Position numbers and translations under genes: made by a program
The notes under the pieces: generated by a model
Seen by the model: the letters and a program-made list of their open reading frames with translations, nothing else
Told to the model about the DNA's origin: nothing
Database searches by the model: none
Shown here: one piece after another, positions 3,525 to 14,053 of the stretch
Layout of the letters: every line of letters begins with the position of its first letter
How positions within the stretch are numbered: the stretch's first letter is position 1
Virus record (IMG/VR): IMGVR_UViG_3300028591_000084
DNA from: a virus
Lineage: Duplodnaviria > Caudoviricetes
Strand: one strand, 5' to 3'
Length of the DNA: 64,000 nt

Positions 3525-3791
3525 CAGGTTATGTTATCTCGAAGGCTTTTTATCCCCCGAATCAGGCAGTTCTCATTTCCCGCCTGCTCAGCATACATAT
3601 TCATCCACTAGGGATGGCGGACACTCTTGGGTAGATTATATTCTTTATTCCTAAAGTTTCACTACCTATGCGTTACGATACTAGACCATATTACAAACCT
3701 AGTTATCTCGGTATTAGCAAATTTCACAGCCTCCACCGATATTGCCCGCTGGTTATCTTAAGTATTGCTACCTAAGACGGCAAACCAAATT
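3525..3791 (-). ncRNA. group I intron (267 nt, ORF-less) located in a 3'-UTR
   Basis: minus strand: P1 GGU|AA..UUGCC with U.G; P2 GUCUUAGGUA-GCAA-UACUUAAGAU; P3 GCGGGCA/UGUCCGC; P4 UCGGU/ACCGA; P7 GCAUA/UAUGC; P8 CAUCC/GGAUG; P9; terminal G at 3525; P10 AAAC/GUUU. Confidence 0.75.
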
Positions 3792-5222: not shown

Positions 5223-5274
5223 AATAATATTTTAATTAGTTTTAAAATAAATTCTCATATCAACTATAAGGATT

Positions 5275-6798
5275 TCACACCTTCACAGTAACTTTCTTAA
5301 TTCTCCAATTAACGAAAGTCTTATTCTCTTTTTTTACAGAAATATGTGATCCATCAATAAATACTTTCCTTCCTGTTTTTTCTGAGAATAAAGAATATGA
5401 CTTCCCAACATAGATCTTGAAAATCTCATAGCGTAATCTTCTCTTTAGGATCTTACAGATTTTTTCCCAATCATAAGGATTCCTATCAATCATATCTAAA
5501 AACTTACTATAAGATTCATGAGGTCTTCCATTCATAAGACCTAATCTAATGAGAATTGTAGAAATCTTTCTCTCAGACTCAGCTAAGAATCCACTAACCC
5601 TATAATAGATCATCTCAGTCTCATATTCATATTTTGGATCTTCATATCCTTCATAGGGTGGGTAGTAGAATGACCCGTAGATTCCATTTTCTCTCAAAAA
5701 TAGCTCCTTTTCACTCAGATCTTCCTTGCCATTTCTATATCTATCCTTAGAGGCCTTTACTCTTTTATAAAACAGTGCCTCCTTAGCAACAGTATATTTC
5801 CAGACAAGACGACTAAGAGCTTCTATACTAAGGGGTTTCATTTCCCTTTTACTTAGTACGGGCAACTTTCTAAGATCCAACAAATAAATCTTATCTGAAT
5901 CTTCCAGATTTATGAATTTTGCTTCAACACAATTCACTGATCTTAGTACTCTGGCTAATTCTTCTGGAATTTTGACTAAGATGAATGCTGTGTTTATACA
6001 AGCATCTTTAACAATATTGAGATTTCTAACTACAGTTAAATTCTCAACCTTATCAATTCCAAATTTATTTTCAGGTAAGGATACTGTAATAGGCTGTTTA
6101 AACTCTAGGGATAAATTAGCTCTATTTTGATTACCAACTACGCCGAGGATCTTTACAAAATTCTCCTTAATTTTCTCCATACAAGCCCTTCTTTTTTCAC
6201 GAGGGCCAATAAGAGTTCCTTTCATTAGTTCATAATCAGCTATGAACGAGGATCCGGTTCTCTCCAAATCCAATAGAAGTTTGGTCACTGAATACCTCTG
6301 ACCCTTCTTAAAGCATCTTCTTGGAAGTACATGATAATCAGTACAATTCTTATACCACTCTCTATTCCGAATAAGATGCTTGCAATTCTGTTTAACATTT
6401 CTTTGTATATCTGGAGAGAAAGCGTTATAGAATGACGAAATCAATAGACCATTCTTCACACTAAGAATCAGAGCCTCCAAGGGATCTTTGTAGTTGATAG
6501 GAATGGCATAAATAAATGCCAGGATCTTAGCAGTTGATTCAAAGTCATAGTTACCTGCCATAGGAGGATTAACAGTCTTATTTTTATACAGAATAAGAAT
6601 CTCATCTAATCCTCTCGAATCAATCTTATTAGTTCGTGCAGTTGATATAGACTGAATAATCCTATATCCACTTTTCAATCCAACCACGAACTGATATACC
6701 ATCTCCTTTTTATTTGGGAGAGTAAACGTATTAGCCCCATTTGTTGGGTAACTTTCAATTCTAAATCTCGATTCGCATATTTGTATAATCATAATCAA
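5275..6798 (-). CDS. hypothetical basic protein (507 aa)
   Basis: long ORF, no recognised motif. Confidence 0.75.
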   Translation of the reverse strand: MIMIIQICESRFRIESYPTNGANTFTLPNKKEMVYQFVVGLKSGYRIIQSISTARTNKIDSRGLDEILILYKNKTVNPPMAGNYDFESTAKILAFIYAIPINYKDPLEALILSVKNGLLISSFYNAFSPDIQRNVKQNCKHLIRNREWYKNCTDYHVLPRRCFKKGQRYSVTKLLLDLERTGSSFIADYELMKGTLIGPREKRRACMEKIKENFVKILGVVGNQNRANLSLEFKQPITVSLPENKFGIDKVENLTVVRNLNIVKDACINTAFILVKIPEELARVLRSVNCVEAKFINLEDSDKIYLLDLRKLPVLSKREMKPLSIEALSRLVWKYTVAKEALFYKRVKASKDRYRNGKEDLSEKELFLRENGIYGSFYYPPYEGYEDPKYEYETEMIYYRVSGFLAESERKISTILIRLGLMNGRPHESYSKFLDMIDRNPYDWEKICKILKRRLRYEIFKIYVGKSYSLFSEKTGRKVFIDGSHISVKKENKTFVNWRIKKVTVKV

Positions 6799-10023: not shown

Positions 10024-12706
10024 ATGAACATGAAAGAAATTAATTCTGTAAAAACAAATGAAGAAGTGATTGAGTTTCTTCCATTTCCAGAATGTGTTAG
10101 GCGTCGAGTAGGTGTTTATCTTGGCGGCAATGATCAAGAGGCTGTTAATACGGCTTTTAGAGAGATTGTCGATAATGCCTCAGATGAAATAGCAGCTGGA
10201 TATGGAGATACAATTTTATTAAGTACAAATTTTAATGGATTTTGTTTTGTAGCAGATAATGGTAGAGGTATTCCAATCTCAATGAGCAGAGATGTTCCTG
10301 AGAAGACGAGTGCTTATCTATCAATATCAGAACTACACACAGGATCAAAATTTACCAGTACCCAAGGAGTAGCAAGAGTTGGTCTTAATGGCTTAGGATC
10401 CTCAGCTACTTCTGCCTGTTCAACGGTCTATTGCTTATTGTCCAGGATAACTGAGGATAATTATAATAGATCTATTCCTGATGTAAAAACTGTTTGGGAA
10501 AAGGCAGGACCACGTTCTAAGAGAGATCTATATTATATTGTCATTATGGAGAAGGGATATAGAACGTATGAAAGTGCTGGTTCACTTAGAGATATTGAGA
10601 AGCTCTTGTTTGGAAAGGATAAAGAATATAAGATTCCCTCCGGCATGAGTACTCTGGTATTCTTTAAACCTGATCCTGAAATTTTTGAGTCTATTAATCC
10701 CGCCATTCCTGTTAAGAATCTCCAATATTTTATGTTAATCCAGGAGAAATTCTTTAAGAGGAAAGTTAATGTTGTAATTGATGGCGTTAATATTAAAAAT
10801 GATTTCAAGCCTTATCGATTTGAGGTAACAAAGATCATAACACCAAAGGACACAAGTATGAACAAAGAAGTTGGTATTTATATGTCCTTTGAGGCTGATC
10901 CTGAATTGAAAACTAAAGAAGTTACTGGATCAGTTAATGGTTTGGATTGTACAGGCCATCATCTTAGTATAGCAGAGTCAATTTATAAGGCGGCACTTAA
11001 AGATCAGTTCAAGATTAAACATTCTTATCTTGAACCTGGTATGAAATTAAATGTCATAATTCTGGCTAATGAGACGATCTTTGACTCTCAGAATAAAAGT
11101 AGAGTTAAGAGTATAGCCAAAGTCAAATCTACAGACTTCACTGAGGTAGTAAAGGATGTTGAGAAGATTTTTAGAAAATACTCTGACTATTGGGAGACTC
11201 ACGTTCAGAAGTTACAATATCTGGCAGATTCTATGAGAAATATCGGTGCTATTGAAAAGGCACAGAAAATCATAGATAGTGCCGGAGGTAATGGTATGTA
11301 TCGAACAAAAGGAGATATGATAGCTGGTTTTGCTGATGCTACTGCTCCTGCAAATGATAGATGGGCTTGTGAGTGCTTTATTACTGAGGGGCTTAGTCCT
11401 TGCGGCTCTTTGAAGGCTGCTAGAAAAGCTATAGATGTAAAATATAGATGTTGTGTTCCTTTACGTGGAAAAGTGCTTGATACAAGTGATAGTACTGTCG
11501 ATAAGATGATGGAAAATAAGGAATTCTTTACGATCTTTTCTCTTATGGGACTAGGTATATCAGCAAATAACGTTATCAAAGACGCTAAAGATCCGGAAGA
11601 GGCATACGAAATAATTAAAAAGAAGTCACGTTATGGCAAATTAATTATAGCTACAGATAAAACGAAAGTTTGTGTCTGAGGGTGTAGAGATACACCTAAG
11701 GAATCCTATTGTTGCGAGGAACTCTGGTTAGGTCTTAGGTACTAAAGAGTTGTAGTTAACTCTTAGTAACAATCTTAAGAATACAGACAATTCGCTTTGT
11801 TATAAGATTAGTCTATTAATTCTATAACAAGACAACGACTATCCCTCTATGGGAGTAAGACAGCAAGTCAATAATGGCTGTTTGAAAGATAGGATACCCA
11901 AACGTTTAAGGCGTGGGTAAAAATATAGTCTGATCTGTATGGAGACATGCAGGAGTTCATAAGAGAACCGGGAAGTAGTGACGACACTTCTTGAACAAAA
12001 TGGCCGATGAAGATGGGTGGCAACAGGTTGCCCAGGGATATAGAAATATATTTCGTAATATTGCATTAAAAGCGGGGAACTCCTGTTAGGCATAAGGTAC
12101 CAAAGTGTAACAACCCTTATGATAGGGACAATCCGCAGTAGAAATACTTCAACGACTATCTCAGTGATGAGAGTAGGGTGGCAAGTCTGTATAATGGCCA
12201 TTCGAAAGATGCAATATCTGACCACGTAATGGTGAAGATAAAAATATAGTCTGAGCACATGGGAAACTATGTGGAGAAGAAATTCTCGTACTAAGTGTAG
12301 ACGACTTAGTGTAAACAAAACTGTATCAATTCAGAAAGGTATATTATATACTATTTTGAAGTTTGCTAGATTTATGATAGATTTTGGTTTGGTTTATATT
12401 GCCGAATCTCCAATATTTGAACAAGGAGGTAAGTATTTCTATCCTAGTGATCCTAGAATACCTGGCAGTCAATTCTGTGTAGGAATGGATCCTAATAAGA
12501 AATTTAGACGTTTTAAAGGCCTTGGTGCTCTTGAACAAGAAGATGTATATTATTCGTTCTACAATGAGCAAACAAGACGTCTAATAAGAGTAACTCCAGA
12601 GTATGCTGATTATGCCATGGGCTTAGTAGAGGACATAAATAAAAGAAAGAAGTTACTGTTTGATAAAGACATATTAACTAATCCATATAATTTCACAGAT
12701 CTTTAA
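10024..12706 (+). CDS. gyrB: type IIA topoisomerase ATPase/TOPRIM subunit (GyrB/ParE-like), spliced: join(10024..11658,12003..12018,12324..12706), 677 aa
   Basis: VRRRVGVYLG, EIVDNASDE, DNGRGIP, LHTGSKF, GLNGLG, TEG.S, PLRGKVL; the splice restores IIATD-ADEDG-LSIQ; exon 3 has YIAESPIF and RFKGLG. Confidence 0.92.
11659..12002 (+). ncRNA. group I intron 1 of gyrB (344 nt, ORF-less, IA-like)
   Basis: P1 CAGAU/GUCUG with U.G and GAAA loop; P3 AUCCUAUU/GAUAGGAU; P7 GACUA (11837-41)/UAGUC (11926-30) within AAAAUAUAGUCUGA; ends in G. Confidence 0.9.
12003..12018 (+). other. 16-nt micro-exon GCC GAT GAA GAT GGG T (A-D-E-D-G)
   Basis: supplies the missing part of the TOPRIM DxDxDG motif and restores frame; ends in U as group I splicing requires. 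Confidence 0.88.
12019..12323 (+). ncRNA. group I intron 2 of gyrB (305 nt, ORF-less, IA-like)
   Basis: P1 UGGGU/GCCCA; P3 AUAUUGCAUU/GAUGCAAUAU; GCGGGGAAC/AAUCCGCAG (P/Q); P7 GACUA (12154-58)/UAGUC (12247-51); ends in G. Confidence 0.9.
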
Positions 12707-12712
12707 TTAATT

Positions 12713-14053
12713 ATGCCAAAGAAAAAACCAATTGTAGAAAATTTAACAAAATCTGTTGGAGAAATAACTGAACAAGCTTATGTTTTGTATGGTGGATATG
12801 TGGCTAATAGTAGAGCCCTCCCCAGCATACAAGATGGTCTCAAGGTGTCAATAAGGCGCTTAATTTATGGGGCAATGCAATATAAAAAAGGTGAGTGGGT
12901 CGGAGGAGATTTGTTAACTAAGACGATGCAGAAATGGCATCCACACTCAGTTGATCAAATGCACTCCTCTGCTGCTCACTTAGTTAGAGATGGTATATTT
13001 TCTGGTCATGGATTTTTTGGCTACACCTCTATTGATGGTGTGGAATCTCCCCCAGCTGCAGGTCGTTATCTTAAAATGAGACTTAGTGATCTTTACTGGG
13101 ATGTGTTAGGAGAAACAACGAAGGAACCTTTTGCTCCTTTCTGTGAATCTCCCCAAGGACCAGAAGAACCAAAGTATTTCAATGTACCAATACCTATTTG
13201 TCTCTATCAAAAGATTCAGACTATGGGTTTGGCAGTAGGTTGTAGAACAAATATTCCGTCCTTCTCACCCAAATCAATCTTAATGGCAATGAAGAATGAC
13301 GACCCTAGCTTATTAGAGTGTTCAGTAGATCTTATTATCGACAAAGAAAACTCTGAGCTTGATCGTATTTGGAGAACAGGAAGAGGAACTCTCTGTTTAG
13401 CCTATAAGATTTCAAGGATGAAAAGTGAGGATGGAAAATCTGAAGGTATCTTATTTGAAAGTGCAGATAGATGTAGTACTGATATCTTCACACCAAAGAT
13501 CTCAAAGTTCCAGAAGCTTGTTGATGATGGAAAGGTTTATATTGAAGACTTGACTGATGAAAATGGTCCAAAGCTTTTCGTCGGAAGAGTTCCTGGTGCT
13601 AGAGGGATAGCGATAGAGGACATAGAGTCAATTGCTAGAAAAATTTGTTATTCAAAGATTGAGTATCAGATTTGGGTAACTGATGGAATGAGGGCTTTTA
13701 GAATTCCTATTAAAGATTGGGTTGTAGGAACTTATGACAACTATATTAATACCTTAGTGAAAGTCAATAATTCTAAATTGGAAAAGGCTAAGTTTGATCT
13801 AGCTGTTCAAGAGGCTCTCCCTGTTATATCTTCTTATATTATGAATGTTAACCCCAAAGCTAGTGATTCTGAAATTCAAAAGGAGACTGGCCTAGGGTTA
13901 GATATCATAGAAGCAGTAATGTCTAAACCGATATCACAATTAAGAAAAAATAAAGATAATTCAGATAGAATTAAAGCAATTAAAGAACGGATTAAAGAAT
14001 TGAAAAAATTTGATCCAATTGTTTATACTGACAACTTAATTAACAGCTTATGA
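12713..14053 (+). CDS. gyrA: type IIA topoisomerase breakage-reunion subunit (GyrA/ParC-like, no CTD)
   Basis: RALPSIQDGLK..RRLIY, WHPHS, PAAGRY (catalytic Tyr); only 446 aa. Confidence 0.9.
   Translation: MPKKKPIVENLTKSVGEITEQAYVLYGGYVANSRALPSIQDGLKVSIRRLIYGAMQYKKGEWVGGDLLTKTMQKWHPHSVDQMHSSAAHLVRDGIFSGHGFFGYTSIDGVESPPAAGRYLKMRLSDLYWDVLGETTKEPFAPFCESPQGPEEPKYFNVPIPICLYQKIQTMGLAVGCRTNIPSFSPKSILMAMKNDDPSLLECSVDLIIDKENSELDRIWRTGRGTLCLAYKISRMKSEDGKSEGILFESADRCSTDIFTPKISKFQKLVDDGKVYIEDLTDENGPKLFVGRVPGARGIAIEDIESIARKICYSKIEYQIWVTDGMRAFRIPIKDWVVGTYDNYINTLVKVNNSKLEKAKFDLAVQEALPVISSYIMNVNPKASDSEIQKETGLGLDIIEAVMSKPISQLRKNKDNSDRIKAIKERIKELKKFDPIVYTDNLINSL

Follow-up and report, generated by a model that had tools for sequence, protein, structure and literature searches.

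Very short exons between tandem group I introns have been described in a few genes. In Twort orf142 (Landthaler & Shub 1999, as summarized in PMC10136302), introns 2 and 3 are two similar IA2 introns that are separated by a 23-nucleotide (nt) exon, and exon skipping occurs. Tandem group I introns surround a 34-nt exon in the 23S ribosomal RNA (rRNA) gene of Coxiella burnetii (PMC10136302), and a 1-nt micro-exon lies between two group IB introns in placozoan cox1 (PMC5436844). A small exon is present in the ribonucleotide reductase (RNR) gene of phiNIT1, and exon skipping is reported for SIOphi (PMC11878797). T4 genes 39 and 60 are associated with the MobA homing endonuclease and a 50-nt translational bypass cassette, and the bypass cassette of T4-like gene 60 is located at Gly46 or Asp45 of the Toprim motif (bioRxiv 10.1101/2022.08.31.505936). 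The locus analyzed here is a gene for the large subunit of a type IIA topoisomerase (GyrB or T4 gp39-like) in a phage of the IMG/VR collection (record IMGVR_UViG_3300028591_000084, 311,995 bp, roughly 312 kb). The whole stretch of this record that was analyzed, 64 kb in length, is referred to as the window. Two group I introns without an open reading frame (ORF) interrupt the region of the gene that encodes the metal-binding DxDxDG motif, and only 16 nt of coding sequence separates them.

Two group I introns and the exon between them

Exon 1 (10024-11658, forward strand, as are all features of the gene given below) encodes the ATPase region and the first part of the Toprim domain and ends with IIATD. 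Its ORF meets a stop at 11679, shortly after KLIIATD. Homology to uninterrupted homologues, as determined by tblastn, ends at 11658 after ATD and restarts at 12324. Exon 3 (12324-12706) encodes the rest of the Toprim domain and the GyrB C-terminal region, from LSIQKG to NPYNFTDL, and is followed by a stop. Junction-spanning alignment with homologues places a 16-nt micro-exon at 12003-12018. Its sequence, GCCGATGAAGATGGGT, encodes A-D-E-D-G and the first base of a Leu codon, and the same codons are present without interruption in the homologues L001 and L003. Joining of 11658 to 12003 and of 12018 to 12324 gives a frame of 677 amino acids (aa) without a stop. The spliced product reads IIATDADEDGLSIQKG around the motif and GKLIIATDADEDGLSIQKGILYTILKFARFMIDFG across both junctions. 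It is aligned without a gap across both junctions with ten uninterrupted homologues, and every column that does not vary in a set of 16 uninterrupted homologues is retained in it (136/136). Neither junction can slide, because the bases on its two sides differ. The computed join of 11658 to 12324, in which the micro-exon is skipped, shifts the frame and gives a truncated product of 556 aa, and computed removal of one intron alone gives a stub of 573 or 551 aa. The locus consists of two complete introns with a true exon between them. A twintron is rejected as an explanation, because the 16-nt spacer is conserved coding sequence and each ribozyme is complete alone.

Intron 1 (11659-12002, 344 nt) is inserted at site A, which follows the codon for the first Asp of DxDxDG, and intron 2 (12019-12323, 305 nt), which belongs to the same intron family, is inserted at site C, after GGGT. 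The RF00028 covariance model (CM) matches both of them over its full length (model 1-253), at 11651-11952 with 46.6 bits and at 12009-12273 with 39.9 bits. The E-values are 1.7e-10 and 1.7e-8, respectively, in a 1-kb search, and 1.1e-8 and 1.1e-6 for the whole window when both strands and all families are considered. These matches are found only when an E-value threshold replaces the default Rfam cut-off. In the CM alignment, the internal guide sequence of intron 1, GUCUG (11674-11678), pairs with CAGAU of exon 1 (11654-11658), and that of intron 2, GCCCA (12030-12034), pairs with UGGGU of the micro-exon (12014-12018). The U.G wobbles of these P1 helices (U11658.G11674 and U12018.G12030) fall exactly at the two proposed 5' splice sites. 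The folding energies of the P1 hairpins are -7.9 kcal/mol for intron 1 and -9.9 kcal/mol for intron 2. The P7 strands are GACUA and UAGUC in both introns (11837-11841 and 11926-11930 in intron 1, and 12154-12158 and 12247-12251 in intron 2), and the last base of each intron is a G (G12002 and G12323).

Covariation was analyzed in an alignment of five members, which are the two window introns and the ORF-less relatives L019, L005 and L091 from other contigs. RNAalifold recovers P2, P3, P4, P5, P5a, P7.1, P7.2, P8, P9 and a 3' helix from this alignment, with compensatory changes in 34 of the 65 pairs. When P7 is added as a pseudoknot (70 pairs), 94.3% of the cells pair, and 34 pairs are changed on both sides. 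The pairing is reduced to 38-47% when the partners are slid by 1-3 columns, and none of 500 shuffles matches the observed pairing, compensatory-pair count or covariation score. The core helices P3-P8 and the P3/P7 pseudoknot are present, together with compensatory changes. P7 is invariant in all five members and therefore provides no covariation evidence. Within each intron, all of the 57 scored pairs but one are intact. P7.1 and P7.2 are located between P7 and P3' (columns 199-212 and 216-244), and 8 of their pairs are compensatory. The presence of P7.1 and P7.2 at this position is the mark of the IA type, which is usual in phages. Both introns belong to subgroup IA (phage type), at which level alone they are assigned. 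Known phage introns, which include those of Staphylococcus phage K lysK and phage RNR genes, share 75-83% identity with the P8-P7-P9 core over 80-110 nt, and an unannotated region of Pseudomonas phage Draal shares 90% identity over 50 nt.

The identity of the two intervening stretches as group I introns is confirmed by these ribozyme and covariation data. A sequence-only reading of this DNA had proposed two complete ORF-less introns with these coordinates, P1 U.G pairs, P7 strands and terminal G, separated only by the 16-nt spacer, as well as the homology break after IIATD, the 677-aa product with A-D-E-D-G of the motif and the frameshift upon skipping. All of these proposals are borne out by the CM search, the junction alignments and the comparison with intron-less relatives. 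Its statement that standard gene callers miss the gene is also correct, since the public protein collection for the contig of the window contains only a 551-aa stub and a 145-aa stub. Neither intron contains an endonuclease ORF in the sense orientation. The only long ORF, which is antisense (11839-12318, reverse strand, 159 aa) and extends over the two introns together with the micro-exon, is probably spurious and is not matched by any Pfam family.

Origin of the pair and its genomic setting

Each of the two introns is found alone in other phages. The contig L008, which is the only one matched by the exact intron-end patterns in IMG/VR, contains an intron exactly at site A (between GAT and GCC, with ATG as the last intron bases) and no intron at the second site. 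Its protein is 96% identical to that of the intron-less P0005/L001. The L008 intron is identical to intron 1 at 330 of the 344 positions, apart from one clean insertion of 1191 nt, and this cassette encodes two HNH_3 domains and an I-TevI/NUMOD-like DNA-binding domain. Intron 1 is evidently a version of this HNH endonuclease-bearing intron without the endonuclease gene. The contigs L175-L182, which belong to a P0005-like lineage of 24 contigs, contain a single ORF-less intron exactly at the second site (between GGGT and TATC, with CTG as the last intron bases). This intron is identical to intron 2 at 289 of 305 positions. L001 contains no intron. Intron 2 is also 79% identical to L005_B, which is located 4 nt upstream.

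The pair is the result of two separate invasions, because each intron is found alone at the same site in another phage lineage. A recent duplication of intron 1 as the source of intron 2 is rejected, since the identity between the two is only 60% and the single introns to which they are 95-96% identical are different ones. The introns have moved horizontally, because they are 95-96% identical to those of the P0005-like lineage, whereas the exons are far more diverged (67-68% for exon 1 and 82-84% for exon 3). The next gene (gp52-like) is 62% identical. The raised DNA identity of exon 3, as compared with L001, L008 and L175, is what a co-conversion tract from homing would leave.

The introns at site A contain at least three unrelated types of ORF, which are HNH (L008), TnsA-like endonuclease (L088:5284-6243 and L173:5903-6925) and DUF7487-like (L007:2784-3917). 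This variety suggests that endonuclease cassettes have been swapped repeatedly among members of one ribozyme family.

The 16-nt DxDxDG code is interrupted at five different points across the clade. These are after the first D (intron 1 of the window, L007, L008, L019, L088, L091 and L173), after the second D (L021 and L024-29), after the third D (L005/L016), after GG-T, the third base of the Gly codon (L088/L089), and after GGG-T, the first base of the Leu codon (intron 2 of the window and L175-182). One intron family occupies four of these sites, as determined with an nhmmer profile. When the best 120 homologues in the protein collection are sorted by a regular expression on their C-termini, which gives approximate counts, 39 are uninterrupted, 22 stop after the first D, 12 after the second D, 8 after the third D, 2 just after DG and 25 at KGL. 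In L008 (6881-7164) and L091 (3528-3858), the KGLG motif of the C-terminal region is interrupted between L and the final G by another intron of this family. A related-locus search in metagenome contigs gave almost only distant (~25% identical) gyrase B genes, which carry no site-occupancy data.

A second, unrelated twin is present in L088. In this contig GAT is followed by an intron with the TnsA-like endonuclease ORF, a 15-nt exon (AGCGATGAAGATGGT), an intervening sequence of 253 nt and then TTGGCT. In L089, whose exon 1 is 99.6% identical to that of L088, only the downstream element is present. RF00028 does not match this downstream element of L088/L089 or the 180-215-nt insertions of L024, L030 and L021. 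These elements are therefore called intervening sequences with group I-like ends, not confirmed introns. The 253-nt element (L088:6473-6725 and L089:5136-5388) is homologous to 3528-3780 of the window (reverse strand; nhmmer E 1e-14), and RF00028 detects neither this element of the window nor its L088/L089 homologues. These phages thus contain a second, putative intron family that standard models miss.

Other small or protein-level insertions are present in the same gene. Very small insertions (~180-215 nt) are located after ARxG, after CEG and after the second D (L024:3765-3959 and 5230-5411, L030:4818-5040, L021:5079-5254 and L012-L015:3281-3494). The U that precedes each of them could form a U.G wobble with guide-like bases close by, and the last base of each is a G. 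Other contigs contain related copies immediately upstream of the gene. Minimal group I-like introns are one possible identity of these insertions, but they may also be of another nature. L023 (4818-5207) contains a mini-intein of ~130 aa (CFTGETKV to VSN, followed by C) at the Toprim CEGLS motif, between C and EGLS, and dozens of homologues of 750-1140 aa carry the intein family PF14890, for example P0013, P0038 and P0121.

The relatives of the window phage are viral contigs of 300-420 kb from rumen and gut metagenomes. The identity of exon 1 to P0005 and P0002, which are both uninterrupted homologues, is 71-79%, and exon 3 is 92% identical to the C-terminus of P0005. The closest homologues from cultured phages are less than 30% identical in protein sequence. 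The Pfam matches of the gene are weak and all under their cut-offs (HATPase_c and Toprim for exon 1, DNA_gyraseB_C for exon 3), and the homologues are labelled as subunit B of gyrase or topoisomerase IV by the Joint Genome Institute (JGI). The assignment to the type IIA ATPase/Toprim subunits is also based on the invariant E, DxDxDG after splicing and the GyrA-like neighbour. This partner gene (GyrA or T4 gp52-like, 12713-14053, forward strand) starts 7 nt after exon 3, is intact and matches Pfam DNA_topoisoIV with an E-value of 1.2e-20. A 376-aa protein with a weak match to the reverse-transcriptase family RVT_1 is encoded by the gene that immediately precedes the topoisomerase gene in the P0005-like lineage (L001:1299-2429 and L175:412-1542). 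Other small genes occupy this position in the window.

Predicted splicing of the two introns and alternative explanations

The GyrB/gp39-like gene would be transcribed with two separate IA-type ribozymes, 16 nt apart in the Toprim DxDxDG code. Each intron would fold alone and recognize its own 5' exon by its own guide, and two guanosine-initiated reactions, in either order, would join exon 1, the micro-exon and exon 3 into the 677-aa frame with the full motif. The layout would be no designed device but the product of two invasions that reached a homing hot spot independently. Taken as a whole, this explanation by two independent self-splicing introns and two invasions of a hot spot is very probably correct. 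We infer that both introns are likely to self-splice in vivo in free order, with predominant inclusion of the micro-exon.

The guides prefer their own exons, with pairing energies of -5.7 and -7.1 kcal/mol for the cognate exons versus -2.7 and -2.9 kcal/mol for the crossed ones. For its P1, intron 2 requires no more of the micro-exon than the final 5 nt (12014-12018), and a possible P10 of intron 1 consists of at most about 2 bp at the first nucleotides of the micro-exon. The 16 nt suffices for both ribozymes and the pairing imposes no order, because the parts of the exon that they use do not overlap. The micro-exon serves both as the 3' exon of intron 1 and as the 5' exon of intron 2, as had been proposed from the sequence alone, but the two roles do not compete for the same nucleotides. 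The further suggestion that this dual role may impose ordered splicing is not upheld, since nothing in the sequence forces an order and the distinct guides prefer their own exons. A chimeric 'large ribozyme', through which exon skipping has been proposed to occur in Twort (PMC10136302), would be disfavoured, because the crossed intron strands lose pairs (P3 keeps 5 of 7, P5 2-3 of 4 and P5a 4-5 of 7), while the helices of each intron are intact.

Several results weigh against this explanation. Both CM scores are under the RF00028 gathering score of 50 bits, so that a default Rfam scan of the window lists neither intron. P10 is weak in both introns. When exon 1 and exon 3 were compared with proteins of the near and longer length classes, no 677-aa protein identical to the exons of the window was found, and the exact spliced-junction pattern has no match in JGI metagenome contigs. 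Some introns of Bastillevirinae phages are spliced in vivo and not in vitro (PMC11878797), and by analogy a protein factor may be needed for self-splicing. Exon skipping is reported in comparable tandems, which are Twort orf142, SIOphi and engineered Tetrahymena pairs (PMC10136302, PMC11878797).

It is unlikely, but more probable than the other alternatives, that the two ribozymes act as a functional unit and are not passengers, either through regulated inclusion or skipping of the exon or as a composite mobile element through co-conversion. In the first version, regulated inclusion or skipping of the exon may set the amount or timing of active topoisomerase. In the second version, the ORF-less intron 2, which is 16 nt from the cut site of the site-A HNH endonuclease, may spread by co-conversion. 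Two observations bear on the second version. The copies of intron 2 are 95% identical between phages with 67% identical exons, and they lack an endonuclease gene. Exon 3 is 82-84% identical between the lineages, as compared with 62-68% for exon 1 and the next gene.

A regulatory device, in which the tandem enforces ordered splicing or regulated skipping, so that splicing gates topoisomerase and replication and the skipped form is a truncated ATPase-only protein of 556 aa, is improbable to a greater degree. Skipping shifts the frame and removes two Asp residues, as such a device would require, and it has been reported for tandem group I introns that flank exons of 23-34 nt, as well as for a phage terminase/polymerase (PMC10136302, PMC11878797). 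Ideas of a 'molecular on-switch' have been floated by the authors of the Bastillevirinae study (PMC11878797). However, the two ribozymes use parts of the exon that do not overlap, and their guide sequences and most of their helices differ. Differentiation of this kind favoured exon inclusion in some, not all, engineered pairs (PMC10136302). In addition, no conserved feature points to a regulator. Each intron is found alone and close relatives contain no introns; the layout is therefore dispensable and polymorphic, as expected of selfish elements. Gating of phage DNA replication by splicing, which the sequence-only reading had put forward, is speculation, and two mobile introns at neighbouring homing sites explain the layout more simply.

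It is very unlikely that the gene is a pseudogene in this phage because one or both introns no longer splice. Both introns lack an endonuclease gene and score under the Rfam gathering score, which would fit decay. In contrast, their scored pairs are intact apart from the single exception in each, they are 95-96% identical to copies in other genomes, the exons contain no stops and retain every invariant residue, and the partner subunit gene is intact. Least probable, to the point of being barely tenable, is a split gene without splicing like T4 genes 39 and 60, in which the 551-aa stub and the 145-aa ORF (12269-12706) would be subunits and the intervening 665 nt dead remains of mobile elements: T4 functions with a split large subunit (bioRxiv 10.1101/2022.08.31.505936) and gene callers yield exactly these two stubs, but the metal-binding motif would be lost, since A-D-E-D-G is in neither stub, the 145-aa ORF begins inside a ribozyme, all core helices are kept in both ribozymes through compensatory changes, and the micro-exon matches the homologues exactly.

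The locus is a homing hot spot with two mobile introns side by side and involves no new mechanism, and the understanding of how group I introns work is unchanged by this case. Its significance lies partly in annotation. Gene callers and the default Rfam threshold leave an essential topoisomerase as broken stubs in this clade of 300-420-kb phages, and among the best 120 homologues on record no more than the 39 mentioned above are uninterrupted. A single stretch of 16 nt in the code for a metal-binding motif has taken up introns at five phosphodiester bonds and contains the bypass cassette in T4-like phages, while inteins and further introns occupy the other conserved motifs of the gene. The clade provides a compact natural series for the study of how altered guide sequences move a homing site by a few nucleotides, and the 16-nt and 15-nt exons are natural test cases for the folding of ribozymes side by side without exon skipping.

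Comparison with known systems

A literature search of limited extent gave no paper in which a group I intron is described for a topoisomerase or gyrase gene of a phage. The introns of the window resemble phage IA introns (those of T4 td, nrdB and sunY, phage K lysK and pol, SPO1, and Bastillevirinae pol, terL and RNR) in the arrangement of P1-P9 with P7.1/P7.2, in their similar core, in their insertion into conserved motifs of genes for DNA metabolism and in the occurrence of ORF-less and HNH-bearing versions. They differ from these in the host gene, a topoisomerase, which is new. The locus shares with T4 genes 39 and 60 the same protein and the same place, because the Gly46 and Asp45 codons adjoin the sites of intron 2 of the window and of the L005 intron. 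However, T4 uses ribosome hopping and a split protein, whereas self-splicing of RNA is predicted here, and the inserts are unrelated.

Like the Coxiella 23S rRNA and placozoan cox1 genes, the topoisomerase gene contains a tiny exon of highly conserved sequence that is isolated by two independent group I introns. Those introns are of other subgroups and are located in an rRNA gene and an organelle gene, respectively, whereas the introns of the window are located in a phage mRNA. Together with the Coxiella case, Twort orf142 is the closest precedent. In orf142 and in the gene of the window, two related IA-type introns are located in one phage protein gene with a very short exon between them, the gene has multiple introns, and skipping of the small exon is possible. 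Unlike the 23-nt exon of orf142, which belongs to a tail tube protein gene, the 16-nt exon encodes the catalytic motif of a topoisomerase. The introns of the window are only 60% identical with distinct guides, and their splicing is predicted from the sequence. Thus, the arrangement is of a known kind, tandem group I introns with a short exon between them, and what is new is the host gene and an exon that is shorter than those of the phage cases found.

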